The notes beneath the pieces were generated by a model. It worked only from the letters and a program-made list of their open reading frames with translations. It searched no databases and was not told the DNA's origin. The position numbers and the translations under genes were made by a program. From the IMG/VR virus record IMGVR_UViG_3300046012_000215, positions 1 through 63,563 of that record: DNA of 63,563 nucleotides; one strand, given 5' to 3'. How positions within the stretch are numbered: the stretch's first letter is position 1; each line of letters begins with the position of its first letter. Source of the stretch: a virus (Duplodnaviria; Caudoviricetes). Positions 11,245 through 57,873 of this stretch are shown in pieces.

Positions 11245-11625
11245 TTATGCTTGAGCCGAGGTAAGTGGAGCATTTACTGTGAAAAGGCCTGCATTGAATC
11301 CAGCTTGAGCAGTCATGTAACCTTCTAAACCAGCCTGAGCAGCCACCAAGTACTCATTGACCTTCGTGAGTACAGCTGGATCAACACCAGTCTGATTTTT
11401 CAAAATACTCAGTCCGCCGATCAAAGCCCCATATCCTGCTTGAATGTCAGTGGCTATAGGCGCCTTTCCTCGTATAGCTGACAATAGAGGGTTTACTGAA
11501 GCCTCAACTCCAGAAGCAATTGCTGCTGAATTAGCGGGAATTACACCACTAGCTCCAAGAACATTTAAAGCTATGTTTCCACCAAGTTCAGCTAGAGAGG
11601 CGATCTCTGACCAGTTAATCTGCAT
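11245..11625 (-). CDS. Hypothetical protein, last gene of the lysis cassette
   Basis: Ala/Gly-rich amphipathic ORF translationally coupled to the lipoprotein gene. Confidence 0.7.
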   Translation of the reverse strand: MQINWSEIASLAELGGNIALNVLGASGVIPANSAAIASGVEASVNPLLSAIRGKAPIATDIQAGYGALIGGLSILKNQTGVDPAVLTKVNEYLVAAQAGLEGYMTAQAGFNAGLFTVNAPLTSAQA

Positions 11626-11990
11626 TATTTGCCTCCTAATAGATTCTGAACGTTAGTCTGAGCTGAGGTTACATTCGCTATGGCAGTCTGAGCAGAAGCC
11701 TGCGTACCGGTTCCATTATGATAAGCTAAGTAAACAGGATTCGCGACAGTTAGAGAACTTTGAAGAGCATTCAAAGCGGTAACTTCAATAGCAGTAGGAG
11801 AAAATAAACCTGCTTTCTGATTAGTTTGAAGCTTATTATAGAAAGCATTCGCAGAAGCTAAAGTCTCTCCAAGTTGCTGATCAATTGAGTTTTGATAACC
11901 AGGAGCCAGGGGCACGGGCGGTGCTGTAACCGTCTTACAACCACTGGCAAATACTAAAATTAAGAGAAGTAGGCCTTTAGTGAACTTCAT
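11625..11990 (-). CDS. Lipoprotein, possible spanin component
   Basis: MKFTK + hydrophobic core + lipobox ASGC; downstream of endolysin and holin. Confidence 0.65.
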   Translation of the reverse strand: MKFTKGLLLLILVFASGCKTVTAPPVPLAPGYQNSIDQQLGETLASANAFYNKLQTNQKAGLFSPTAIEVTALNALQSSLTVANPVYLAYHNGTGTQASAQTAIANVTSAQTNVQNLLGGK

Positions 11991-12345
11991 TTGTAGGGGT
12001 CTCCTTAATTACTTCAGGTTGAGGGCTTAAAGGCGGTTTAGTGGATTGGTCTTTAACTTCAGATTTAAACTTATTTTGAAGCATATTAGAGCCTACGCCA
12101 ATAATGGTACCAGCAACTGTAGAGTCTAGATTAAATTTCTTAGACACGCAGAGCATAGCGCAGCCAATTAGTAAGACCAATATAGCTGTAGGTTGTTCTT
12201 CTAACCTATTTAATCCTTCTATAAAGGAGTTAAAATCTGCTTTAGTTCTTAAGACTATCAAAAGAGCGATTACTGACCAAATGTAACCCAGAAGAACGAA
12301 AGGGTGAATAGTCACCCCTCCTCCTATAGTTTGTAAGCTATTCAC
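11977..12345 (-). CDS. Putative holin
   Basis: 2-3 hydrophobic segments, charged C-terminus, adjacent to the endolysin. Confidence 0.6.
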   Translation of the reverse strand: MNSLQTIGGGVTIHPFVLLGYIWSVIALLIVLRTKADFNSFIEGLNRLEEQPTAILVLLIGCAMLCVSKKFNLDSTVAGTIIGVGSNMLQNKFKSEVKDQSTKPPLSPQPEVIKETPTNEVH

Positions 12346-12848
12346 ACGTCCTCCGAGCTGAGGTACTTACCACGTAAAATTGAAAATCGGTCCAATAGAG
12401 TTTCAAGGGAATGACCACCGGCCTGAGCAAAATTATTACCTGGGAAGCTAGCCCAAATATTAGAGCAAGATTCTACAGCTCCTTGAAAGTCCCCAGAATC
12501 AACTTTAATCAATCCACCTTTTTCTTCAATTTGCTTTAAAGTTACAGCATCTTGAGAAGATGGTGAAAAATCAGGTAGATTAAGAGAGATTCTATAGATC
12601 GCCCAGTATCTGTAAAGCAATTGATATCTACCAGAAGCCGTAGAGAACAAGTTCGGAGCTTTAACTAATTTAGCTCGTCTATGGGCAAAAGGATGATCTG
12701 AAAAATTACTAAAGATTTCAGCGCCCTCAGGACCATTGATTATGACATCATAACCATCACATTTAGTGATTGATGATCGGCTTGTTCCTTCACTCCACGC
12801 TATAAGGTCTAAGAATGATTTCCTATTTAATGCGCTGCCAATTAGCAT
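12342..12848 (-). CDS. Endolysin, lambda R-type lytic transglycosylase
   Basis: FLDLIAWSEGT, FSDHP, STASGRYQ, FSP.SQD, IWASFPG. Confidence 0.92.
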   Translation of the reverse strand: MLIGSALNRKSFLDLIAWSEGTSRSSITKCDGYDVIINGPEGAEIFSNFSDHPFAHRRAKLVKAPNLFSTASGRYQLLYRYWAIYRISLNLPDFSPSSQDAVTLKQIEEKGGLIKVDSGDFQGAVESCSNIWASFPGNNFAQAGGHSLETLLDRFSILRGKYLSSEDV

Positions 12849-13314
12849 AAATCCACTTTATCGCTCCCGTACTAAAGATAGTTCCGCCTAACCACTTAGC
12901 CCACTTAAATAGTTTAGACCATTTTTTGTTAGATTCATTCTGAGATATTTGTTTACCTTCATTTTTACCTAAAATTCTATTTACTTTACCAATTAGGTCA
13001 ATGGCTAGAGATTCAAATCTAGCTGTGCTACTATGAAGGTCTCCAATTCTACCTAGCATGGCTTCACTGGCTACAGCGGCTTTACCAGCATCTAGTCGAG
13101 CCTCACTACAAGTAGAATCTATTCTTTGAAGTCGAATCCGATCTTCAGAATGCTCTCTTTCAATTTTAGCGATTCTAGTATCAACTATACCTAAAATTGT
13201 CATAGTGATCGTAGCTTCCATAGATTTACATTCTTTCTCAATTTGAGTTTTAAGAGCAGGAAGCAAATCATTCTCAACAAGCCTCTTTATGTGTTCAATA
13301 TCTCTTTGATCCAT
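12823..13314 (-). CDS. Coiled-coil protein with C-terminal membrane segment (lysis-associated)
   Basis: Helical body, basic patch, then WLGGTIFSTGAIKWIY; precedes the endolysin. Confidence 0.55.
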   Translation of the reverse strand: MDQRDIEHIKRLVENDLLPALKTQIEKECKSMEATITMTILGIVDTRIAKIEREHSEDRIRLQRIDSTCSEARLDAGKAAVASEAMLGRIGDLHSSTARFESLAIDLIGKVNRILGKNEGKQISQNESNKKWSKLFKWAKWLGGTIFSTGAIKWIYANWQRIK

Positions 13315-13349: not shown

Positions 13350-15269
13350 TTACTTAATTATTATGCTGACACTTATATCACCAGTTAGCACTGAACCTCC
13401 ATCAGGTGATGGAGTACCTGCCGGTTCCACCGCCCCGATACTGGGCGGGTTAGGCCGCGTCACACCGTAGTAGTCCGCCGTCCATCCCCCCGTCGCCAAT
13501 CCTGCCGCAATCGCAGGCGACGCTCCCAGGCAAGATTCCGCTTCAACCACGCACGGATACGACCCTCCGCTCACAAGGGCGTCCAAGGCGGATTCCGGGG
13601 GCCAGGAACCTTGCACAGGCTCTCCGGTAAGGAATGGGTCGGTAGTGATAATGGTGGGGCCCGGTGTAGACCCGTTGCGAATCCCATACTCGACGTTATG
13701 ACCAGAGACGACATGAATACTGGAATCTGTGTGGTAAAACAGGCCAGGAGCTTCGCTGACGGGCGCGGTGTACCCAAGCATAACCATGTTTTGAAACATC
13801 AGCGATGCCGTGTCGCAGTTGTTGGCAACAATGCAACTTAGGTCGAAGATCGTTGCTCCGGTGACGAACATCGTGATGCTGTTGAACAGCGTTGTCGAAC
13901 CGGAGTTGGTCGAGTAGGGGAACTGGTCTCCCGCCGCGCGGCAGAAGTTCGACAGATAGCTCCCTCCCAGGCCCGTGCCAACATTGAAGCTCTGCGCCGC
14001 GCCGGGAAGCAACGCGGACATACGCGAACAGTTGCCGCCGATGAGAAGATTCTGGAAGAGATTGTTCGAACCTGCGTCGGTGCTGAACTTTACCTGCGCC
14101 CCCATGTTTCCGTAAGAAAGCAGATTGGTAACGGTCAAATTGTGGACCAGTGCTTCGGGGCCTAGACCGCAGTCTTTGGAGTTGTATTCACACAATCCAT
14201 GGTCCCAACTGAATGCCGCCCACTGCGTTACGAAAGTGTGGCCCTGCCCGCTCCATGTGTCTCCGAACCCATTCGATGCCGAGTCGTAGCACGCACGCGC
14301 GGGCCACTGCGAGTGCGTGATGGGATATTCCTCGTAGCACCCCTGCCCCACAAAGTCGACGTAACTGGCCGTCATCGTCGCTCCCGTACCGTTGGGACCG
14401 GAGTTGCCGTCGTCGAAATTCCAACCCGCCTGCGCGTTGAATGCGAAGAGCACGCGCGTTGCGACTGTTCCCACGCCTATTGGCCCTATGATCCCAGAGC
14501 CGGAGCATCCGTCGATGTAGACATCCTGCAACGTTAGATTAGTCGTGGTTGCGGAAGTCGTGAGGCAATTGTCCGCATAGTCGTCGAGCGGTTGATTGTT
14601 GGCGCATCCGACAGGATAGGAGGGAGACCCGTTGCGAGTGCAGTTGCCGCTCCATGCCGAACCGTTCCAATGCTGGTTATGCGTAGTGAGTTCGATCCCC
14701 TTGATTGTGCAGCCATGGCAGCCTGAAAGCACCAATCCGGATTGCAAACTGAATCCCATGAATATCTGGGTCAGATTCGACGTGTAGGGCCACACTTTTG
14801 CAGGATTACAGGAATAGACCCCTGCCGCGCACGCACCCAGAATGGTCGTGTTGTCTGGGATTTGCGGGTTGGAGCATCCATAGGAACCAACCGCGTAACA
14901 AGGGGCCGGGTCGCCGAATGCGCTGCTGGTGGGGTTGATCCATCCCATGCGGCAAGGCCCCGTCACGGCATTGGTGCCTAACGGCGCACAGCCGAATATC
15001 TCCACAGTGTCCCCCGGAGCGCTGACCCACCCCAGCGAGGGTGCACCCAGTCCGGAGAAATCGTCCCACATGAACTGCAACTGGGAAAATGCGCAGGGCT
15101 GATTGGTGCCGGAACCGGGATCGGGGGCGTTGGCTTGTCCATTACAATGTCCTGCGGGGACATTGGCCGAATAGCGCGTCCCGCCATCTGCGCGGACAAA
15201 CCAGGTCGAAGCGCACGCGGGCAGCGCACACAGCAGCAGCGCGAGGGGGAGGAGGCATCTTATTTGCAT
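13350..15269 (-). CDS. Secreted Cys-rich beta-helix (pectin-lyase-like) protein with choice-of-anchor-Q-like C-terminus
   Basis: Signal peptide ending ACA|S; TWFVRADGG start; beta-helix-like rungs; SPAIAAG...DYYG.TRP.PPSIGAVE. Confidence 0.7.
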   Translation of the reverse strand: MQIRCLLPLALLLCALPACASTWFVRADGGTRYSANVPAGHCNGQANAPDPGSGTNQPCAFSQLQFMWDDFSGLGAPSLGWVSAPGDTVEIFGCAPLGTNAVTGPCRMGWINPTSSAFGDPAPCYAVGSYGCSNPQIPDNTTILGACAAGVYSCNPAKVWPYTSNLTQIFMGFSLQSGLVLSGCHGCTIKGIELTTHNQHWNGSAWSGNCTRNGSPSYPVGCANNQPLDDYADNCLTTSATTTNLTLQDVYIDGCSGSGIIGPIGVGTVATRVLFAFNAQAGWNFDDGNSGPNGTGATMTASYVDFVGQGCYEEYPITHSQWPARACYDSASNGFGDTWSGQGHTFVTQWAAFSWDHGLCEYNSKDCGLGPEALVHNLTVTNLLSYGNMGAQVKFSTDAGSNNLFQNLLIGGNCSRMSALLPGAAQSFNVGTGLGGSYLSNFCRAAGDQFPYSTNSGSTTLFNSITMFVTGATIFDLSCIVANNCDTASLMFQNMVMLGYTAPVSEAPGLFYHTDSSIHVVSGHNVEYGIRNGSTPGPTIITTDPFLTGEPVQGSWPPESALDALVSGGSYPCVVEAESCLGASPAIAAGLATGGWTADYYGVTRPNPPSIGAVEPAGTPSPDGGSVLTGDISVSIIIK

Positions 15270-15937
15270 GATACCACCACCTTTGAAATTATAGCGTTGA
15301 ATGAGCTGGTTATTGCAGCAGATAGCGTGCTGGCTGGAGAGCCTGGAGTATAAGTGACAGGAAAATTAGGCACCGTGACACTACATGTTAATGTCTGAGT
15401 CGCAGGCACCGGAGGCACCACCACAACCACCAGCAGCGCAGGCACCGTCACCGGCTTGCCATTCACCGTCACCACCTGCACGGAGGCCGTCTCCAGCACG
15501 TCCAGCTCCTTCACCGTGCCCGCGATGGGGTCAGGGCCGAAGCCTGTCGGTTGGGTAGCGTTGCTTACGAAAATCGACCACGGTGGAGCGCCGGGAGCAA
15601 TCGCGATGTCCACTTGGTTCCAGCAGCCTCCCGACTTCGCGCACGGCGTTCCGCTCACCACTGCCGCCCCTTGCGCCGCGCCGTAGCGCACCGTCGCACC
15701 CACGGAGAACGTCACCGTGTCGCCTTCGTTGGCTACCTTGACCCAGGTCTGCGCGGGAGTCGCATCCTGCAGCATCACGCCAACTGTTGAGCTGATATTG
15801 GCCGCTTCAGTTAGTGAGGCCATTTCGCGTACCCCATCTGGAGTCTTCCAGAATGGATCGCTCAAGGGGGGAAATGGGAAGCTCTGCGCGTGCAGGGGGA
15901 TGGCGAAGAGGAGCGGGAGGAGGAATCGAAGTTTCAT
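15260..15937 (-). CDS. Secreted protein, possibly lectin-like (start corrected to 15937)
   Basis: MKLRFLLPLLFAIPLHA|Q with RBS AAGGAAAGG; VRYGA...FGPDPIAGTVKEL resembles lectin-type DP..G..K motif. Confidence 0.6.
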   Translation of the reverse strand: MKLRFLLPLLFAIPLHAQSFPFPPLSDPFWKTPDGVREMASLTEAANISSTVGVMLQDATPAQTWVKVANEGDTVTFSVGATVRYGAAQGAAVVSGTPCAKSGGCWNQVDIAIAPGAPPWSIFVSNATQPTGFGPDPIAGTVKELDVLETASVQVVTVNGKPVTVPALLVVVVVPPVPATQTLTCSVTVPNFPVTYTPGSPASTLSAAITSSFNAIISKVVVSCK

Positions 15938-15950
15938 AAATACCCTTTCC

Positions 15951-18900
15951 TTACGGAGTGCAGGTGTAATCAATATCCACACTGAGGCCCAACGCTGACG
16001 TGAGTGATGTGATATTCATTCCGGTGGCTGTTGCGATTGAGTGATATCCAATGCTCGCTCCGGTTGCGTTGTTGAGTACGCTGGCCGAGCAGACGTAGGC
16101 CGTAGTGGTAGTTGGCCACACGAGCGCGAGCAGGGTGCCAGTTGTAAACGTCCCACCAGCGACGGTGTAGTTTCCACGCAAGTTGGTGCAGGTGGCAGAT
16201 GCACATGTTACTGTGCCTGTGCCTGATCCGCCTGTCGCAGAACTAATAGCGTCGCCAGCGGCTATATTTGCTACTGGGATAGTCGCACTGTAAGTCACCG
16301 CGCCAGTGTTGTTGGCGTAGGCATATCCTGTATGGCCATCGAGGAATAGCCCACCAGTGGATAGTTCAAACCCAAAAGGGACATTCGTTCCAATCGCGCA
16401 ACCAAAGCACATGCCTCCACCGTGGCTATTATCGGCAGTGTCAACAAGCAAGTAACCAGCTGCATTCTCTCCATGCATCCACACCTGACCGCCGCCGCCG
16501 TTGGCTCCGCCGCCATAGTTGTATGAAGGCATAAGAAACTGCGCGCTGCCTGTCAGTGGAATCACACCTGGGTAAGCACCAATGATGGTGATGCCATTTC
16601 CGTTGCTTAGTCCTCCTGAAAAATTAGGAGCGCGAATTTCCTGGGTAGAATTCACGATACCAGCGAGAGTTATCCCGCTGTCCAGCGGAGAGTCACCCGT
16701 AGCATTTCCGGGCGTGATCACTGGGATGTATCCAACTGTGCCGCTCACGCAGCCTGTGCACCCTCCACGAGCGACATTCAGCCCATCGTTGAGCGTCACT
16801 GGCGTGAAATTGTTGGTCGAAACTTGACTGCCCTCAAGCGCAATTCCGCCCACAGTGGCCTGAATCGTCATCTCTTGGGTATCGTGGCAATAGGCGATGC
16901 TGGAAGTCTGATCCCGCTGCTCCCAGAGACTGAAGCAGTGCTGCGTAGTCCCGGCAATCTCTCCCTGGGTTCTCAGCAGATACCCTGTCCCGCCCACCTC
17001 GCCCACCGGATCGTACTCCATGTCGAACAGCCCGGCGTATGGCCCCGCGCCGGGGTTGGAAGTCCCAATCCCGGCGAAGATTGGAGTGATGTACGTTCCG
17101 CCCGCGCCTTGATAGGACTGCGTGGCAGGCAGGTAGTTGAAGGTGTTTTGATACTTATTGGTAGTATTTACGATCGGGACGCCTAGCCAGCCGTTGCCTA
17201 TAAGCTGTTGGTCTATACCCTGGGTAGCCGCGTACGGGTCTTCATTGCGCGTGTAGTTGACTATTCCTTCCCAAATCTGTGAAGCCAGGTTGGGATTCCA
17301 CAAATTGTCGCTGGAAGTCCAGGCTACATTGTTGTCTTCCACGCCGACCGTCACTCCATCATCGGAGACATATGTAACGTCCGCGCCCTGATATAGGTCC
17401 CCCGGCCCGGTCACGATCCCGTTTCTGATGAGGTTAGGAACCATGTACCCCATCAAAACCCTGGTGGTAGACAAGGAGCAGACCACGTTATGCATGTAGT
17501 GATACCCGCCAACGTCGAACGTCGTCTGGTCGTAGTAGTACCCCGCGAAACCTCCAGAGCAGAACTGCTCATTGGGAAGATGGCTGAACCGGAAGCTGGC
17601 TGTGATCTGCTGCGTGCCGGAGCTGGAAGTCCCGCTGTATGTCCCTACCGAGGTGGGCTTCACCGACTCGAATAAAATGCCTTGGCCGAAATAAAGAACG
17701 TCGCTGGTCGTCAGTCCCGTCCCGCAATTTGCCGTGCAGTTGATGGTGAAGGTGCGCGAGGTAGGTGCATTGGTGCGGTTGTCGGGGATCAGCCCAATGT
17801 CGATTTCAAGCGGGACGTTGCCTTCAAAGGACGCAGCGCTGGACGCGCACCCTCCGCCGGAAAGATCGACTGTCGCCAGTCCTCCGCTCGACGATACGAA
17901 CGTGCCCGTGCATCCGCTGATTTTCGTGGCAAGATCGAGCAGGGGGGCGCGCGGGCCTGCTCCGTGATTGTTGTTGACTGCAAGCGAGGTCACCCCGGTC
18001 CCGCCAGTAGTTACCGTGCCCGACCACATCGGGGCTTCAAAACTTTGATTGTAAATGCCATAGGAGCCTTGGTCCGATGCCGCAATCGCGGCAGGCTTTA
18101 CAGCAGTACCAATGTTGATAAGTTGCTTGTCGCCAGAGCCGAAGAATCCCCCGCCAATCGCAATGACTTGATGAATGCCCTGGTTATATGAATCACTGTC
18201 ATATTTCTCTATGAACGATCCAGTCCATCCGGCCAGTCCACCTACCTGATAAGCCACATCAGTCAAAGTTCCAGGAGATGTTGCCAGCGTGCAGGAGGTA
18301 GTCGATGCGCACGAAGTAATCTGGTAGATCAGATTCTGGCCGCCCGTGGTGAGCGTCATGCTGATGGTGTTCCAGCAAGTCAGTGTGCCGCATGGGCTGG
18401 TAAAGGTTGTGCCGTCTGCCCAAGTAACAGTCGTGCCGCTTACGTTGACATGCCCCGAAGCGATGTTCCCAATCTCCAGACCAGGAATACTTGGGTTCCC
18501 AATGTCGTAGCCTGGAAACCAGTCGCTGAAGTTCATGTGCTCGCAGCCGTGACCTTCATCACTGTTACCCACGTCGCCGGGAATACCGTTGTCTCCGCAA
18601 TAGATTTGTTTGGCCGTACGGGTAACATCGCCGGGAATGTTGCCTGCCTCGGCTCCGAAGTTCCAATAAACCTGAACATTGTTTCCGCCGCCAAGCGCCT
18701 GAAGCGATGTGCGGTCCGGCATGGCGACGGCGATCACACTCTCAGTCCCCGTATAGGTCGGTGGGACCAGCACCGCGCTGGCTCCAGCCGTAAAAGCGTT
18801 CACGATGCCGTTGCTGCCGCCGCCAGTCTGATACCCTTGCGGGTCGTAAATGCCATTCACGATGTTCGAGGCGACTGACGGTGCTGCCGTCGTGCTGCCG

Positions 18901-19802
18901 ATAGCCGGAGGCGCTGCAAGCCTAAGATCAGTCACGACCGGAGACTCCGCCCAGCCATTGACGCTCTGCACCAGCCCCACGCCGGTCTTGCAGCGGATGT
19001 AGTCCACTCCCGTCGCAGGCACGCCCGCCGTGCTCGATTCGTCGCAAGCCGTTCCATGCGCGCCAGTAGGCAACGCAGCTAAAGCAGCAGAGGACGGAGT
19101 ACCAAACACTCCACTTGGGGCTACAAGAGGCCCGGTTAATGTGCAACCTGTAAGTAAGCAGTAGAAAGTGGAATAATCTGAACTAGAGGCTGTGACAGCT
19201 CCAGTTCGGGTAAAGACTGAACTAACTGCTCCACCACCCCCACCGCAAGGAGCTCCAGAATCAGTTAAATTTCCAGAAGCATCCCACTTAGGACAATTAT
19301 TAGCTGGAGTAGAGCCGGACACCGTAGCTAACTTAGTGGTATTTCCAGCATAAGTGAATGGAAAATCAGCAGTCACTAGTGATCTAAGAACCGCATTTCC
19401 ACTAGCTCCATTAGGAGTAGCAAAAATTAAGTTAGCTGCCCCCATAGGAGTAGACCCACAAGGTTGAGAGCCTATAGTGCTAGTAGTTACCCAATAAGCG
19501 CAATTTGGAGCAGTAATTGTTCCTGAAATGGTAGGAAATGTTCCACCACCAACTCCAACAAAAGAGCCCGCAGTTACTGATCCACCAATTAAAACATTTC
19601 CAGTTACTGAAAGAGCTGGAAATGGCAAGTTTCCTGAAAGTAAAAGATCTATTCTATTAAAATTGTAATTAAGGGGGAGATTCCAATTAGTTGAGCCATT
19701 AGATGGAATCTCAAGAGCAATATTAGGAGTAGGAGTAAACTGAGCCATTGCTAAAAAATTTAATCCAAATAGTACTACTAAAGCTGGCCAGAACTTTTTC
19801 AT
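15951..19802 (-). CDS. Large tail fibre/adhesin with N-terminal signal peptide
   Basis: Follows the baseplate fibre gene; MKKFWPALVVLFGLNFLAMA|Q, then TPNIALEIP...W..PLN.NF..ID fibre-type start, VSSVFTRTGAV repeat, many paired Cys. Confidence 0.75.
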   Translation of the reverse strand: MKKFWPALVVLFGLNFLAMAQFTPTPNIALEIPSNGSTNWNLPLNYNFNRIDLLLSGNLPFPALSVTGNVLIGGSVTAGSFVGVGGGTFPTISGTITAPNCAYWVTTSTIGSQPCGSTPMGAANLIFATPNGASGNAVLRSLVTADFPFTYAGNTTKLATVSGSTPANNCPKWDASGNLTDSGAPCGGGGGAVSSVFTRTGAVTASSSDYSTFYCLLTGCTLTGPLVAPSGVFGTPSSAALAALPTGAHGTACDESSTAGVPATGVDYIRCKTGVGLVQSVNGWAESPVVTDLRLAAPPAIGSTTAAPSVASNIVNGIYDPQGYQTGGGSNGIVNAFTAGASAVLVPPTYTGTESVIAVAMPDRTSLQALGGGNNVQVYWNFGAEAGNIPGDVTRTAKQIYCGDNGIPGDVGNSDEGHGCEHMNFSDWFPGYDIGNPSIPGLEIGNIASGHVNVSGTTVTWADGTTFTSPCGTLTCWNTISMTLTTGGQNLIYQITSCASTTSCTLATSPGTLTDVAYQVGGLAGWTGSFIEKYDSDSYNQGIHQVIAIGGGFFGSGDKQLINIGTAVKPAAIAASDQGSYGIYNQSFEAPMWSGTVTTGGTGVTSLAVNNNHGAGPRAPLLDLATKISGCTGTFVSSSGGLATVDLSGGGCASSAASFEGNVPLEIDIGLIPDNRTNAPTSRTFTINCTANCGTGLTTSDVLYFGQGILFESVKPTSVGTYSGTSSSGTQQITASFRFSHLPNEQFCSGGFAGYYYDQTTFDVGGYHYMHNVVCSLSTTRVLMGYMVPNLIRNGIVTGPGDLYQGADVTYVSDDGVTVGVEDNNVAWTSSDNLWNPNLASQIWEGIVNYTRNEDPYAATQGIDQQLIGNGWLGVPIVNTTNKYQNTFNYLPATQSYQGAGGTYITPIFAGIGTSNPGAGPYAGLFDMEYDPVGEVGGTGYLLRTQGEIAGTTQHCFSLWEQRDQTSSIAYCHDTQEMTIQATVGGIALEGSQVSTNNFTPVTLNDGLNVARGGCTGCVSGTVGYIPVITPGNATGDSPLDSGITLAGIVNSTQEIRAPNFSGGLSNGNGITIIGAYPGVIPLTGSAQFLMPSYNYGGGANGGGGQVWMHGENAAGYLLVDTADNSHGGGMCFGCAIGTNVPFGFELSTGGLFLDGHTGYAYANNTGAVTYSATIPVANIAAGDAISSATGGSGTGTVTCASATCTNLRGNYTVAGGTFTTGTLLALVWPTTTTAYVCSASVLNNATGASIGYHSIATATGMNITSLTSALGLSVDIDYTCTP

Positions 19803-19852
19803 TCTTACTCCTAATAAACTTGAGAAATCGCTTAGAAATCAACTAGTAAAAA

Positions 19853-20854
19853 TTAGCTATTAGGTGTTGTCTCAATCCAATTCTGTAAAGTGGCACCGGC
19901 TCCACCTGCTTGAACTAGATACCAGTAGCCTATAGGAACATCAAAAGTGGCCGTCATCCACGCTGGTGCGGTAGTCGTGGGCGTCACGGAAACTTGAGAG
20001 ACAAGCAAAGCAGGCGAGGAGGTGGGGCCTATGAAGGCTACCAACTGACCTTCGCTATCCGCTCCGTGAAAGGCTACTACATTAACCCTCATCGGGACGC
20101 CGCTGGTATTTTGAAACGTAGTACCCAGAGAACGTGATCCAGTTAAATCATTAACTGAAATGTTGGGAGAGGAGATTGGTCTCGGTACAAACGATCCTCC
20201 AACATTAGTTAAAACTTCTCCAGCAGAACCGGGAGAATTTAAGGTTAAAGTAGCTGTTATTAAATTCTCAGCAAAAGAATTACTGGAGTCACTAGTAAGT
20301 ATTCCTATTGGACGAAGATTACCAGCTGAGTCTGCTTTAAAAAGCATCAAACTAGTTGAATTAGCAATAGGATCAGGTTGAACATTAAATCCAGTTACAA
20401 ATGAAGGCCAGTTAATCGTTCGACCGCCAGTTGCGTCCTGAGTTAAAATAAAAGCCACTACTTGACCAGAGGTGACACCAGTTATTGTACCGCCAGAGAT
20501 GTTTCCAGCTAAAGTTATCTGAAATCCGTTGGAAACAGCTGCATTTAGAGCGGGAGTCGGGGAATAAGAAACTACAGTTAAATTATTAGCTAAATCAGAA
20601 AAAGTAACAAGATTCGATAACTGACTCACTAGAGCACTGTAATTACTATCTAGCATGCTCAAGCCTTTATTAGATAAAGCTTGAGCTAAAGCAGCCACCA
20701 TAGTAGTTACTTGGTAAAAAAGCTTATTAGCTAGTTGATCATTAAAAATCTGACCGTTGATCGCTCCATTAACTCTCTGACTATCTGCAGTATAGCCTGC
20801 ATCAGTTTCTTGATTAGCTGCTCCAGGGTTAAATTGTAGAAAGTTCGTTGCCAT
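19853..20854 (-). CDS. Baseplate-attached tail fibre protein
   Basis: Position after the DUF2612-like gene; MATNFLQF...NKLFYQ N-terminus, LTQDATGGRTINWP, C-terminal VPIGYWY domain. Confidence 0.8.
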   Translation of the reverse strand: MATNFLQFNPGAANQETDAGYTADSQRVNGAINGQIFNDQLANKLFYQVTTMVAALAQALSNKGLSMLDSNYSALVSQLSNLVTFSDLANNLTVVSYSPTPALNAAVSNGFQITLAGNISGGTITGVTSGQVVAFILTQDATGGRTINWPSFVTGFNVQPDPIANSTSLMLFKADSAGNLRPIGILTSDSSNSFAENLITATLTLNSPGSAGEVLTNVGGSFVPRPISSPNISVNDLTGSRSLGTTFQNTSGVPMRVNVVAFHGADSEGQLVAFIGPTSSPALLVSQVSVTPTTTAPAWMTATFDVPIGYWYLVQAGGAGATLQNWIETTPNS

Positions 20855-25295: not shown

Positions 25296-26072
25296 CTATT
25301 GACTCGAACCTAAATTATTACTGCTGACGTTTCCAGCTCCAGGGATGTTGGGATAAGTAGGAGTATTAGGCCACAGAGTAGAAGGAATGACATTCTGAAG
25401 AACTTGAGAAGAATTAGGCGCAGTTGACTGAACGATACCTGTAGTTGTGTTAGAAGTAGTTTGAGGTCTAGCACTAGAAGCTTGTTGTGATACTACACTA
25501 GCCGCTATTACTTCACTGAGGGTAATTGAAGCTTTAAGAGCGTGACGAGTTCGGTTATCATCTGGAGATACTGCGTCTACAATCAACATGTTGTAGTACG
25601 TGTCTAAGCGAGTAGTCAAAGTAATCAAAGTTCGATTTACTTGAAGACTCTTAATGATTTGCCAAGCTGATACACTCTTAGTCGAAGCTCCAACCCAAAC
25701 ACCATTGGAGAAAGAGGCCATCGCGTCACTCATGCCTATTTCTAGAATAACTTGAGCTGGTTTATTATAGGCGTGATCGGAGATGTTAGCACCAGTAAGA
25801 ACTGGATGCTGTGTCTTCTCTACTTGACGATGGTGACTTAATTTCATAACAGCGTCAAATACATAATTGATCTCGGCAGAAGTCACTTGACCAGAAGAGT
25901 TACTAGTCACAAGTGGAACAGTCAAGATCGTAAGGGCAGGCTGAGAGTACTGGGGTGGAGTCCAGACGCCAGCATCTGGTAAATCTATATCTGGAGGTTT
26001 ACTGGAAAAGAAAGTAACTATCTGTCCAGTGGCAACCTCTAGAAAATTAGGAAGATTTATTCCGCCGCCCAT
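25296..26072 (-). CDS. Baseplate tube-initiator/Dit-like protein
   Basis: FDAV...H...T.HPV.TGANISDHAY..P; T.L.TY.NM.I. Confidence 0.8.
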   Translation of the reverse strand: MGGGINLPNFLEVATGQIVTFFSSKPPDIDLPDAGVWTPPQYSQPALTILTVPLVTSNSSGQVTSAEINYVFDAVMKLSHHRQVEKTQHPVLTGANISDHAYNKPAQVILEIGMSDAMASFSNGVWVGASTKSVSAWQIIKSLQVNRTLITLTTRLDTYYNMLIVDAVSPDDNRTRHALKASITLSEVIAASVVSQQASSARPQTTSNTTTGIVQSTAPNSSQVLQNVIPSTLWPNTPTYPNIPGAGNVSSNNLGSSQ

Positions 26073-27706
26073 TAGTTAAAAGGACCTCCAGCCGTTTGAG
26101 CTGTTGTAGACCTAATTTTAGAATTCATCGTTTCATGAAGAATGTTTTTAACGAAAGGCGTCCACTGCTCTTCAGGCAAAGCATGAGGAACCTGAATGTT
26201 TAGATTCTCAATAACTACCCCACCACCTGAAGCTTGACTTTTGGCTGAAATTGAGCTATAATAGCTCAAGATACTAGAGACATAATCTTTAGTCTCAGAG
26301 TAAGGAGGAATACCCCCATACTTATCTACAGCAGTCGGTCCTGCGTTATAGGCAGCTAATGTTTTAGAAACATCTCCACCATATCGACTCTTAAGATCAG
26401 CAAGGTAATGAGCACCAGCATCGATGCTTTGAGATGGGTCGAATGAATTGGTGGCTCCATATTGAGAAGCTGTAGGGTCCATCAACTGCATCAAGCCCTT
26501 TGCTCCTTTAGAGCTTATTAGTCCAGGATTATACCCACTCTCTTGATGAATAACCGCTGAAAGAAAATTAGGATCAATTCCATACTTTAAACCAGCGGCT
26601 TGTATAAGTCCAGCTAAATCTGAGTTATTTACTGAACTATTTACTGAGTTAGTCGTTTTTTGTAAACTCAACGCATAATCAGAGAAGTTTTTAAGATCTG
26701 GATTCTTCTGGGCATCTTTAGCTGAACCGAAATAACCTTTAGCATCCGACACAATATCATGAAACTGATTCAAGATATCTTGTGTAAGAGCGTCTCTAGT
26801 TTTAAGGTCTCCAGAAGCTTGAGCTTTATTTCCACCAATCATGTCAGCGAAAATTTTAAAAGTATGATCCCCAATTTTACCTATTAAGTTTAAAGTAAAG
26901 ACAGTTTCTGTTAATAGTTGAAGCCAATCTTTAGTAGCACTGATTAGATTCTTTAAACTGAATTCAGTGGTGCTTAAAGATTTATCATTTAGTAATAAGC
27001 CAGTAAAAAAAAGAAAGTCTCCAGCAAACTGTTTAGTTACATCCTTCACATCTTTCATAATTAGTTCAAAGCTCTTCCAAACAGGCACTAGTCCACTAGA
27101 AACTTCATCGACTATATCTGGAAGATTGGTTGTGAACCAATCATTTAACTTATTGAAGGTATTTAAAAGATCGCCTGAACCAAATCCCAATTTTTGAAAC
27201 AGTTCATTAACTGTTCCCATGGTCATAAATTCAAGTTCAGTGGTGAACCTTTTCACTTCCATCCGAATATCTCGGATGCTTCTCATATTTCGTTCAAAGC
27301 CTGAGCCTAAGGAATTAGCTAGTTTAAGATTCTGCTCATACAAAAATTGAAATCTTTTGTTAAGCTCAGGGTCATAAGCGATCTGATCTAAAGAAGCTCC
27401 GAGTTCATCAGTGGCTAGTTGCATCGCCCTAGCAGACTCAGTGCTCATTAGCATTCTCATACCAAAGAGTCGGTATTGCTGATCAGCCATAGCTGTCTTA
27501 TCAGCTAAAGAAATTATGCTCAATCCAATTCCAGCAAATACACTAGTAATTGTCGCGTCTAACTTAACAAAACTAGTAGCTAAGCTAGTTACAAATGAAG
27601 TCGCGCTCCTATTAGACACACTTAAGACGTCATTAAACTTACGAAAAGAAAGTGTGTCTACTGAAGCCCCGAGCTTAACTAAATAGGATTCGAGAACATT
27701 ATCCAT
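26072..27706 (-). CDS. Short tape measure protein with C-terminal SLT lytic transglycosylase
   Basis: LESYLVKLG start; AVIHQESGYNP, GAKGLMQLM, AAYNAGP, PPYSET.DYV. Confidence 0.9.
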   Translation of the reverse strand: MDNVLESYLVKLGASVDTLSFRKFNDVLSVSNRSATSFVTSLATSFVKLDATITSVFAGIGLSIISLADKTAMADQQYRLFGMRMLMSTESARAMQLATDELGASLDQIAYDPELNKRFQFLYEQNLKLANSLGSGFERNMRSIRDIRMEVKRFTTELEFMTMGTVNELFQKLGFGSGDLLNTFNKLNDWFTTNLPDIVDEVSSGLVPVWKSFELIMKDVKDVTKQFAGDFLFFTGLLLNDKSLSTTEFSLKNLISATKDWLQLLTETVFTLNLIGKIGDHTFKIFADMIGGNKAQASGDLKTRDALTQDILNQFHDIVSDAKGYFGSAKDAQKNPDLKNFSDYALSLQKTTNSVNSSVNNSDLAGLIQAAGLKYGIDPNFLSAVIHQESGYNPGLISSKGAKGLMQLMDPTASQYGATNSFDPSQSIDAGAHYLADLKSRYGGDVSKTLAAYNAGPTAVDKYGGIPPYSETKDYVSSILSYYSSISAKSQASGGGVVIENLNIQVPHALPEEQWTPFVKNILHETMNSKIRSTTAQTAGGPFN

Positions 27707-37343: not shown

Positions 37344-37856
37344 TTACCGAACCACTCTCCAGTTAAGAGTAACTGCGGCACCAGGAGTGATGGAAAGGCC
37401 TGTGTTGTTACAAACTTTAAAGTTCACATGGCCAGAAGTTGGATAAGGAATAATTACTAAAATTCCTCCAGCGGCCGGAGCATAGCCAGTAGTACTAGTG
37501 GGATCAGCATTGAAACCCCAAATAATAGCATCGGTTGTCGCTACTCCAGTACCAGTTGCAGTTACGACAGTGTCACAAGCTCCGGAACCAATAGCAGCAG
37601 TGTTTAATGTTACTGTGCCAGAAGCTACTGTAGTTGTAGTTGAAGTTCCACTAGGTATAGGAACTCCGTTATAGAGAAGTTGAGTACCTGAGTCTTGAAT
37701 CTTTGACGGGCACAGAATCGGAACGCCATTGATGTGACTGCAATAAGCAGGAATATAAGTGGCAGCTCCGTCTTGCGCTGCTACAGGTCCCGCGCTCTGC
37801 GCTAAACAAGGCACACTAAACAATGTACTGAAGATCAGTAGCTTAATAATTTTCAT
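37344..37856 (-). CDS. Signal-peptide-bearing beta protein; possible head spike/fibre
   Basis: MKIIKLLIFSTLFSVPCLA|Q; Thr-rich beta domain ending VCNNTG.SITP...LNWRVVR. Confidence 0.65.
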   Translation of the reverse strand: MKIIKLLIFSTLFSVPCLAQSAGPVAAQDGAATYIPAYCSHINGVPILCPSKIQDSGTQLLYNGVPIPSGTSTTTTVASGTVTLNTAAIGSGACDTVVTATGTGVATTDAIIWGFNADPTSTTGYAPAAGGILVIIPYPTSGHVNFKVCNNTGLSITPGAAVTLNWRVVR

Positions 37857-40910: not shown

Positions 40911-41270
40911 TTATTTCTTTTTATCAGAAACAGGGGCTTTAACTGTAGGATTAGCAACTAGCATATTCTTGCTATCATCCCAATGGGCACCGGGACTGTT
41001 CTGATTAATGGATTGAATCATTTGAGCTCGCTCATCCTCTAAAGGCTTAAGCTTCTCATTAAGATTATTAATCTTCTCTCGATTAAGCTCCATCATAACC
41101 ATGATACCTTGATTACGAAGTGAACTTATTTGCTGCTGATCATTCTGAATCTGCTGTTTTAAAGTCGTTACCTGCGAGTCCTCTTTAACTACAGGATCAG
41201 CGGGTTTAGGGGGTTGAGCTAAGCTAACAGCAGACATGGAAACAGCTAGTAAGATCGCTAAGCGATTCAC
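40911..41270 (-). CDS. Signal-peptide-bearing coiled-coil protein
   Basis: MNRLAILLAVSMSAVSLA|Q; Q/N-rich heptads. Confidence 0.7.
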   Translation of the reverse strand: MNRLAILLAVSMSAVSLAQPPKPADPVVKEDSQVTTLKQQIQNDQQQISSLRNQGIMVMMELNREKINNLNEKLKPLEDERAQMIQSINQNSPGAHWDDSKNMLVANPTVKAPVSDKKK

Positions 41271-57689: not shown

Positions 57690-57771
57690 GTCTGAATGGC
57701 GGAATCGGCAGACGCAACGGACTTAAAATCCGTTTTCTTCGGAAGTGAGGGTTCAAGTCCCTCTTCAGACA
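57690..57771 (+). tRNA. tRNA-Leu (anticodon TAA)
   Basis: Acceptor GTCTGAA/TTCAGAC, anticodon arm ACGGA-CTTAAAA-TCCGT, long variable arm, T arm GAGGG-TTCAAGT-CCCTC; CCA not encoded. Confidence 0.95.
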
Positions 57772-57873
57772 CCGCAATTGGGATGGAGCTGATTAGGACG
57801 GTCACAATTAAGCCAAGGGTTTTTCTTTTGTCCCTCTCATCATCCCAGACCGAAAAGATTTGGAGAAGTGTAA

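Follow-up and report, generated by a model that had tools for sequence, protein, structure and literature searches.

Background

Assembly of tailed phages is, in the textbook account, wholly cytoplasmic. The tailspikes and fibres of phages such as P22, CBA120 and G7C consist of a conserved N-terminal anchor and an exchangeable distal enzyme or receptor-binding part. To our knowledge, spikes and fibres of this type have no signal peptide and are assembled in the cytoplasm. Here we describe three adjacent genes (genes 1, 2 and 3) in the virus record IMGVR_UViG_3300046012_000215, which was analyzed over its whole length (63,563 bases, linear, CheckV completeness 93%; termed the window). The genes are on the minus strand between a baseplate fibre gene and a lysis cassette, and their sequences indicate that the products are very probably exported by the Sec pathway and folded with disulfide bonds. 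The locus is similar to the P22, CBA120 and G7C spikes in that it follows baseplate genes, combines an N-terminal module with mosaic beta-helix or esterase-like bodies, and has its breakpoint just after the N-terminal part. It differs in that a leader is the rule (113 of 126 proteins), cysteine counts are even, and neither sequence nor fold searches link the module to known anchor domains.

Two described systems come close in other respects. WceF of Pantoea stewartii is an exported trimeric beta-helix exopolysaccharide hydrolase that displays the tailspike fold and acts on the exopolysaccharide of its own producer (PMC7949094, parts covered). On the basis of those parts, WceF serves well as a model of gene 3 and of the bacterial relatives of gene 3. 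However WceF is chromosomal, has a twin-arginine (Tat) signal and belongs to an exopolysaccharide synthesis operon, whereas the genes described here are phage-encoded, have Sec-type leaders and are found in a late structural operon. The second case is that of Lys44 of phage fOg44, a Sec-exported endolysin, and of the signal-anchor-release (SAR) endolysins (review, PMC6116005, parts covered). As described there, these are late phage proteins that cross the inner membrane by host Sec and become effective once the holin fires, which is the behavior proposed for the present products. Lys44 and the SAR endolysins however are small peptidoglycan hydrolases, whereas in the window the endolysin is leaderless and it is large proteins, resembling fibres or depolymerases, that bear the export leaders.

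Leaders and cysteine content

The initial annotation of this DNA described three open reading frames (ORFs) that each begin with a classical Sec-type leader, and translation of the ORFs confirms this for gene 1 (15951–19802), gene 2 (15260–15937) and gene 3 (13350–15269). By inspection, each leader has a basic segment followed by a hydrophobic segment and a small-x-small motif. A crude signal-peptide rule of our own flags 10 of the 103 ORFs of the window, and the three genes are among them. Searches of Pfam (E ≤ 0.01) and PHROGs gave no family for any of the three. Nor was there a match among 50,697 GenBank phage records, either to the region by blastn or to the first 180 amino acids (aa) of gene 1 by tblastn.

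The paired-cysteine motifs reported for the 1283 aa product of gene 1 are all present in the translation, and the neighboring fibre (19853–20854) has no cysteine, as had been stated. Gene 1 encodes 30 cysteines (2.3%), gene 2 encodes four, and gene 3 encodes 27 (4.2%), three of which are in the leader; the rest of the window has 230 in 17,877 aa (1.29%). Removal of the three leader cysteines of gene 3 gives mature counts of 30, 4 and 24, all of which are even.

The same signature was surveyed in 27 related viral loci, where the mature chain was approximated by a fixed cut 22 residues after the start. The crude rule flags 34 of the 37 ORFs of at least 300 aa that are downstream of the fibre gene, compared with 3 of 213 homologues of tail and baseplate proteins. 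Cysteine makes up 1.89% of the flagged ORFs of at least 200 aa versus 0.63% otherwise. Of the complete flagged ORFs with at least two cysteines, 33 of 36 have an even mature count, versus 59 of 97 unflagged ORFs (binomial p 2e-7). Even counts are expected of fully disulfide-bonded proteins; thus the parity fits the presence of disulfides and is independent of the method of leader prediction. Homologues of all three genes keep a leader that has diverged in sequence while the mature start is conserved, and cysteines are enriched and even in number. The proposal of export with oxidative folding, made in the initial annotation, is thereby strengthened. Cleavage by signal peptidase and the disulfide bonds themselves are predicted from these features.

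Start and leader of gene 1

The gene 1 product is predicted to consist of a leader, an N-terminal module, fibre-type repeats, a mosaic body and a C-terminal domain with four cysteines. The predicted Sec signal peptide spans residues 1–20 (19743–19802, minus strand), with the sequence MKKFWPALVVLFGLNFLAMA followed by Q, and cleavage is predicted after AMA. A Shine-Dalgarno sequence, AGGAG, is found at 19808–19812, five nucleotides (nt) before the ATG at 19802.

The leaders might not be cleaved export signals at all, and could be explained by mis-called starts, by uncleaved tethers of the SAR type, or by an island that is an assembly chimera. Some observations point that way. The gene caller of the source collection began gene 1 internally, Met19 of gene 1 aligns with the start of a leaderless homologue in locus L005, and the composition junctions at ~13400 and ~19250 (see below) are known from assembled sequence alone. 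Met19 was considered as the true start and rejected. A start downstream of the leader had been raised as a concern, but a ribosome-binding site is present at the first ATG of gene 1 only, with no Shine-Dalgarno sequence at Met19. In addition, the relative L013 has no internal Met. L013 is a 38% GC (guanine plus cytosine) contig whose tail proteins are 35–78% identical to those of the window; its gene at the same place has a different leader and a nearly identical mature start. With respect to tethers, a SAR domain is an N-terminal helix that is rich in Gly and Ala, is weakly hydrophobic and lacks a cleavage site. The leaders here, by inspection, are rich in Leu, Phe and Ile and end in small-x-small, unlike SAR domains; in the homologues the hydrophobic regions are Leu/Phe-rich and are succeeded by small residues at −3 and −1 with Q at +1, a motif present in 85 of 113 leaders. 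The cysteine parity also counts against these explanations, and long intact ORFs run across both junctions. Taken with a second contig of discordant composition described below, these points make this family of explanations very improbable.

The N-terminal module

A conserved module occupies mature residues ~1–60 of gene 1 (19563–19742, minus strand), with the pattern TPNI.L..P, then W, then LN.NF..(I/L)D.LLSG. A phmmer search with the first 180 aa of gene 1 against 1.84 billion representatives gave 215 matches at E ≤ 0.001. The best 150 of these were examined with a regular expression that sought the module within the first 110 residues, and 126 display the motif; most of the 24 without it by this pattern match other parts of the query. 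A hydrophobic leader precedes the motif in 113 of the 126 proteins, ten start at most 12 residues from it, and three have another type of extension. A cleavage-type site, small-x-small followed by Q, is present in 85 of the 113 leaders. The leader is similarly maintained in the homologues fetched for gene 2 (12 of 12), and for gene 3 seven of 12 have a leader, three an array of immunoglobulin (Ig) repeats and two neither. Conservation of the leader, which the initial annotation had proposed as a check, is thus borne out, most fully for genes 1 and 2.

In this family the module is always at the mature N-terminus and is itself free of cysteine. The sequences that follow it are variable, and homologues share with gene 1 either the first ~100 aa only or the last ~105 aa only. 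An AlphaFold2 (AF2) model of the mature N-terminus, based on a 64-row alignment, gives block means of 86–96 for the predicted local distance difference test (pLDDT) over residues 1–60 and low values beyond. The model shows a short hairpin and a helix at 22–37. Fold searches with it gave a best Foldseek E of 5.1 and a best VIA Z of 3.6 (root mean square deviation 1.6, 38 residues aligned).

The initial annotation regarded the mature start as that of a trimeric fibre attachment region, and a fibre attachment start is a plausible reading of the sequence. The only links from gene 1 to described fibre families are indirect. Relatives that share residues ~105–155 match the tail-fibre families phrog_38058 and phrog_21962, and short leaderless module proteins (described below) match phrog_2710 at E 0.0023.

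The C-terminal domain

The last 105 aa of gene 1 (15954–16268, minus strand) form a domain with four invariant cysteines and the motif WPTTTTAY. It displays 46–61% identity to seven copies from viral contigs (alignment A1). This domain is also the sole part of gene 1 that is common to 19 proteins (P0003–P0021), where it is 37–89% identical (76–89% in the thirteen closest, P0003–P0015) and represents 6–16% of the query. The bodies of these 19 proteins are unrelated to one another. By inspection 15 of them have a leader; the other four show none, and some of these are possibly truncated.

The domain is found in 11 viral-contig loci, and leaders are present in all eight loci that have a complete ORF (six distinct proteins). 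Scans of 185,579 prokaryote species, each represented by a single genome, failed to find the domain: they gave 514 and 72 pattern matches, none of which was confirmed. The nearest neighbors of the domain in the Atlas are small viral hypothetical proteins (0.95, 0.92, 0.91). AF2 gives it an all-beta model of low confidence (pLDDT 59). Fold searches with this weak model gave a best Foldseek E of 0.089 and VIA Z values of at most 5.9 to generic Fn3-like and accessory beta-sandwiches, which are not diagnostic.

Cargo proteins of type IX secretion have a signal peptide, a variable body and a beta-sandwich C-terminal domain. Gene 1 and the 19 proteins with which it shares the C-terminal domain are built from the same three parts, including the beta-sandwich of the weak model. 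They differ in that there is no Por_Secre_tail match (Pfam, E ≤ 0.01), in the four invariant cysteines, and in the failure to find the domain among the species genomes. A host sorting signal should be common in such genomes, so this result counts against type IX secretion, and the domain was rejected as a type IX sorting signal. As for a C-terminal intramolecular chaperone, there is no Pfam match to Peptidase_S74 in gene 1, and the Atlas gives only a 0.89 lead to K1-lyase_C.

Genes 2 and 3

Gene 2 encodes 225 aa. Its leader ends in LHA, followed by Q, and is succeeded by an insert of ~45 aa and a small domain that starts at TWVKVANEGD and has a conserved pair of cysteines. The start is the ATG at 15937, which has a purine-rich site at 15943–15950. 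An alternative start, the GTG at 15982 (240 aa), was rejected, as it is the ATG that the purine-rich site precedes. All 12 gene 2 homologues fetched (141–266 aa) have a leader followed by the conserved start and the cysteine pair, and a BLAST search of gene 2 against all fetched loci gave no match. Gene 2 encodes a small protein that, on this evidence, is predicted to be exported.

Gene 3 encodes 639 aa, and its ATG overlaps the gene 2 stop codon. The leader ends in ACA, followed by S, and the chain from TWFVRADGGTRYS on appears, by its Atlas neighbors, to be a right-handed beta-helix protein, with 24 mature cysteines. There are 270 homologues at E ≤ 0.001, and identity is 41–54% among the 119 matches listed (the window's own protein left out). 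Several homologues are on contigs of 0.25–4.5 Mb, those of megabase size presumably being bacterial chromosomes. In the three fetched homologues with Ig repeats, the array is directly before the conserved start. The two with neither leader nor array are P0024, where an extension of ~230 aa comes first, and P0026, where 11 residues do.

The nearest Atlas clusters to gene 3 are bacterial, are named right-handed beta helix and are most commonly from Acidobacteriota (features 0.97; TM 0.82 over 573 aligned residues). A Pfam search of gene 3 gave no match at E ≤ 0.01, one structural row in the Atlas meets the bar for PF13229, and a relative, gp17 of phage Tunturi 1, has a weak PF13229 match below the cutoff. 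Gene 3 appears to encode a carbohydrate-active enzyme with a beta-helix, from a secreted family found mostly in Acidobacteriota, the activity being predicted from sequence and fold. The initial annotation had suggested that host secreted domains are recruited. For gene 3, and so for that part of the suggestion, the presumably bacterial contigs and the bacterial Atlas clusters speak in its favor.

The cassette in other viruses

The N-terminal module is found in 56 viral loci, 55 of which were parsed. In 18 it follows a leader and is joined to a long body, in 35 it constitutes a leaderless protein of 126–170 aa (257 aa in L065), and two loci are uninformative. Of 27 loci examined in detail, 25 have a homologue of the window fibre encoded upstream of the module, and their hub, spike, wedge and fibre genes are arranged as in the window. 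Where the module protein is leaderless, the ORF that follows overlaps its gene and bears a leader.

Tail fibre assembly proteins such as P2 gpG and Mu gpU are encoded right after fibre genes. The leaderless module proteins have a similar position (35 of 55 viral loci), e.g. the 146 aa gp112 of phage Tunturi 4. Unlike gpG and gpU, they have no family match, and in most members of the module family a signal peptide precedes the module and a body of 500–2200 aa is joined to it.

Other mature N-terminal sequences are present in the same setting. A second module (INP..Q..W....G.G.P, then a cysteine pair) follows the leader in 11 of 14 next ORFs; it is found in L005 (5705–10249) and in the first ORF after the short module gene in L037, L042, L044, L046, L049–L052, L056 and L066. 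A third (STN.L.G..P.CTVTVYLTGT) follows the leader of Tunturi 1 gp12 (L071, 10371–13943), P0002, a 796 aa ORF in L009, and P0189. The second module suggests that there are several interchangeable N-terminal modules for exported proteins.

The cassette is also found in cultured phages. Gene 3 shows 27–29% identity, over 50–55% of its length, to proteins of the Tunturiibacter phages Tunturi 1, 2 and 4, which belong to the first phage isolates from Acidobacteriota (PMC11924767, parts covered). In the podovirus Tunturi 1, gp12, gp13, gp14, gp16 and gp17 all have leaders, and their genes are flanked by that of a tail protein on one side and by the lysis genes on the other. Here gp14 is labelled as a tail spike and gp13 has a module-like start. 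The order in the siphovirus Tunturi 4 is a leaderless tail fibre, the leaderless module protein gp112 (a "tail assembly protein" by Phold) and two leader-bearing proteins, gp113 and gp114, the second of which belongs to the gene 3 family. Mature cysteine counts of the Tunturi leader proteins are 20, 10, 20, 32, 8 and 20, with one in the small gp16, and the leaderless fibre has nine. A shared domain was sought in the proteins upstream of the module genes of Tunturi 1 and Tunturi 4, and was dismissed, BLAST giving noise only. The parts of PMC11924767 covered do not mention a leader-bearing cassette. A term search of that text gave no occurrence of "signal peptide" or "mass spectrometry"; its supplementary tables may hold notes on single genes.

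A foreign GC island within the cassette

A 150-nt GC map shows a high-GC island at 13400–19250, with 51–67% GC in a genome of ~40%. Gene 2 lies entirely inside the island, together with the greater part of gene 1 and almost the whole of gene 3. The 5′ part of gene 1 (19250–19802, minus strand), upstream of the presumed recombination junction, has 33–44% GC. Thus the low GC that is native to the genome is displayed by gene 1 over its first ~180 codons and by gene 3 over its last ~17, and the body of gene 1 downstream of the junction is foreign, with 58% GC. It follows that the cassette is a mosaic replacement that has retained the native 5′ end of gene 1. We read gene 1 as encoding a modular fibre- or spike-like protein in which the body has been swapped in and the native module has been kept with its own baseplate genes.

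The island was not mentioned in the initial annotation, nor was the gene call of gene 1 in a public collection (P0001), which has an internal start codon and a length of 1018 aa. P0001 therefore contains neither the leader nor the N-terminal module, a loss of practical importance to users of the public call, and the GC shift inside gene 1 may be the cause of the internal start.

A second contig shows a comparable discordance. In L002, an IMG/VR contig of 43% GC, a gene of 51% GC encodes a leader and the C-terminal domain. The gene order of L002 differs, and the L002 ORFs compared by BLAST include no homologue of the baseplate genes of the window. The window is therefore not the only case of a cassette with discordant GC, and this second low-GC viral contig argues against a chimera of assembly. 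The bacterial neighbors of gene 3, most commonly from Acidobacteriota, together with the Tunturi matches, indicate that the island probably came from a phage of Acidobacteriota.

The foreign GC of the segment and the export of its products could also be those of accessory "moron" genes, which would serve surface decoration, superinfection exclusion or lysogenic conversion outside the lytic programme. The slot between tail-fibre and lysis genes is indeed a classic site for morons. However the three genes are tightly packed and overlapping on the late-gene strand, the slot is filled in 27 related loci and in Tunturi 1, and the proteins have lengths of 500–1700 aa and are modular in the manner of fibres. 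Recombinase or integrase genes are reported only for Tunturi 3–5 in the parts of PMC11924767 covered, which also bears against such a role. The accessory-gene explanation is thus considered unlikely.

Possible docking on virions or free action

Related to possible function, the three genes are tentatively viewed as a distal host-recognition or depolymerase cassette whose products are exported, that of gene 1 docking onto virions and that of gene 3 acting free. The following course of events is proposed. The three products would be made late as Sec preproteins and exported to the periplasm, where they would be cleaved by signal peptidase I, fold with disulfide bonds and accumulate. The holin would then open the inner membrane for the leaderless endolysin, and the contents of cytoplasm and periplasm would mix inside an outer membrane that is still closed. 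At this point the gene 1 protein would dock by its N-terminal module onto finished virions, and the gene 3 protein, which has no such module, would act free on capsule or exopolysaccharide.

The mixing step is physically plausible since a leaderless endolysin leads one to expect a hole-forming holin; in lambda, a holin that works with a leaderless endolysin opens large lesions. In T4 extracts, moreover, fibre-less particles can take up fibres.

Docking is the favored, if still tentative, reading for gene 1, and its basis is gene position, modular design and mosaicism. In 25 of 27 loci the gene immediately follows that of the fibre, and its product has a conserved module at the mature N-terminus with variable bodies behind it. 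Leaderless module proteins follow fibre genes in 35 of 55 viral loci, and in the window a native module is joined to a foreign body. In addition, relatives with residues ~105–155 match tail-fibre PHROGs, and the C-terminal domain was found here only in viral contigs. For gene 3, free action is more likely than docking because an anchor module is absent.

The main competing explanation is that the proteins are exported but never become part of the virion. They would then be soluble exit or receptor-destroying enzymes that cut capsule, exopolysaccharide or lipopolysaccharide and free the progeny from matrix and debris. Gene 3 and its phage homologues do look like secreted bacterial beta-helix enzymes. 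The bodies that carry the C-terminal domain resemble SGNH esterases and pectate-lyase-type helices, a reading made from sequence in which only P0016 has a precomputed Pfam assignment (PF13472). The cassette always adjoins lysis genes, a separate leaderless fibre is present, and no new assembly route is necessary. Free enzymes however leave unexplained a conserved 60 aa module that heads hundreds of different bodies, always at the mature N-terminus, a small leaderless protein of the same module after tail-fibre genes, and a recombinant that keeps the native module and swaps the body alone. There is also the cost, since ~10% of the window genome and ~20% of that of Tunturi 1 would be devoted to proteins outside the virion. 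This explanation is a serious one, although on balance slightly less probable than docking.

Several points weigh against docking and, in part, against the wider scheme. The leaders were called by inspection and by our crude rule rather than by SignalP. The module has no match in Pfam or PHROGs, and a profile of it gave no match to PDB sequences at E ≤ 10. The architecture of gene 3 is that of ordinary secreted bacterial enzymes, with no anchor module. The leaderless fibre has its own tip domain and could itself serve as the receptor-binding protein, and the position of the cassette next to the lysis genes is equally fitting for an exit function. The labels "virion structural protein" and "tail spike" given to the Tunturi proteins come from Phold and PHROGs only and not from virion proteomics; the annotation was by Phold, PHROGs and DRAM-v (PMC11924767, parts covered). 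Full-text literature searches brought up no earlier case of a tailed phage with exported virion parts, the nearest being exported endolysins and WceF, and no description of signal-peptide tail-fibre or spike genes as a class was found. Lastly, the host of the window phage is probably an acidobacterium, which for the 40% GC phage itself is inferred.

If docking does take place, it may be that tailed phages of Acidobacteriota with myo-, podo- and sipho-like morphology build their receptor-binding and depolymerase appendages outside the cytoplasm and add them in trans to finished virions, within the seconds that separate firing of the holin from rupture of the envelope. This would be a new and categorically different assembly step, and it would explain how secreted host carbohydrate enzymes that depend on disulfides can be borrowed as virion parts. 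If the proteins do not dock, these phages spend 10–20% of the genome on secreted exit enzymes, which bears on the movement of viruses through the polysaccharide matrix of soil Acidobacteriota. In either case the genes that occupy the receptor-binding slot encode Sec leaders and paired cysteines in a set of soil phages, cultivable isolates included, and Acidobacteriota are a dominant soil phylum for which there is almost no phage biology.

Neighboring genes and other features

Matches to PHROGs in the window include the large terminase, portal, major head protein, tail sheath, tape measure, baseplate hub and two wedge subunits; the window is thus the genome of a contractile-tailed phage. The leaderless baseplate fibre upstream of gene 1 (19853–20854, minus strand, 333 aa, no cysteine) has a conserved core of ~187 aa and a variable tip. 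It has only a weak match to phrog_34656 and no Pfam family.

The lysis cassette (11245–13314, minus strand), identified by PHROGs and by inspection of N-termini, is directly downstream of the three genes. It encodes a leaderless endolysin (12342–12848, minus strand; phrog_90, E 1.2e-40), a holin-like ORF whose N-terminus was inspected and which has multiple transmembrane segments (11977–12345, minus strand), and a spanin-like lipoprotein that by inspection has a leader ending in ASGC (11625–11990, minus strand). A 163 aa ORF with a hydrophobic C-terminal end and a 126 aa Ala/Gly-rich ORF are also in the lysis cassette, and the latter has a homologue in L009.

The protein in the tape-measure position (26072–27706, minus strand) has a lytic transglycosylase-like domain at its C-terminal end (phrog_669, phrog_2013). 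There is a single tRNA-Leu(TAA) at 57690–57773 on the plus strand, which fits a low-GC phage that supplements a higher-GC host. Two further small leader-bearing ORFs are within the head-morphogenesis module, at 40911–41270 (minus strand, 119 aa) and at 37344–37856 (minus strand, 170 aa). The 170 aa sequence displays 47% identity over 95 aa to a 918 aa leader-bearing protein of L037.

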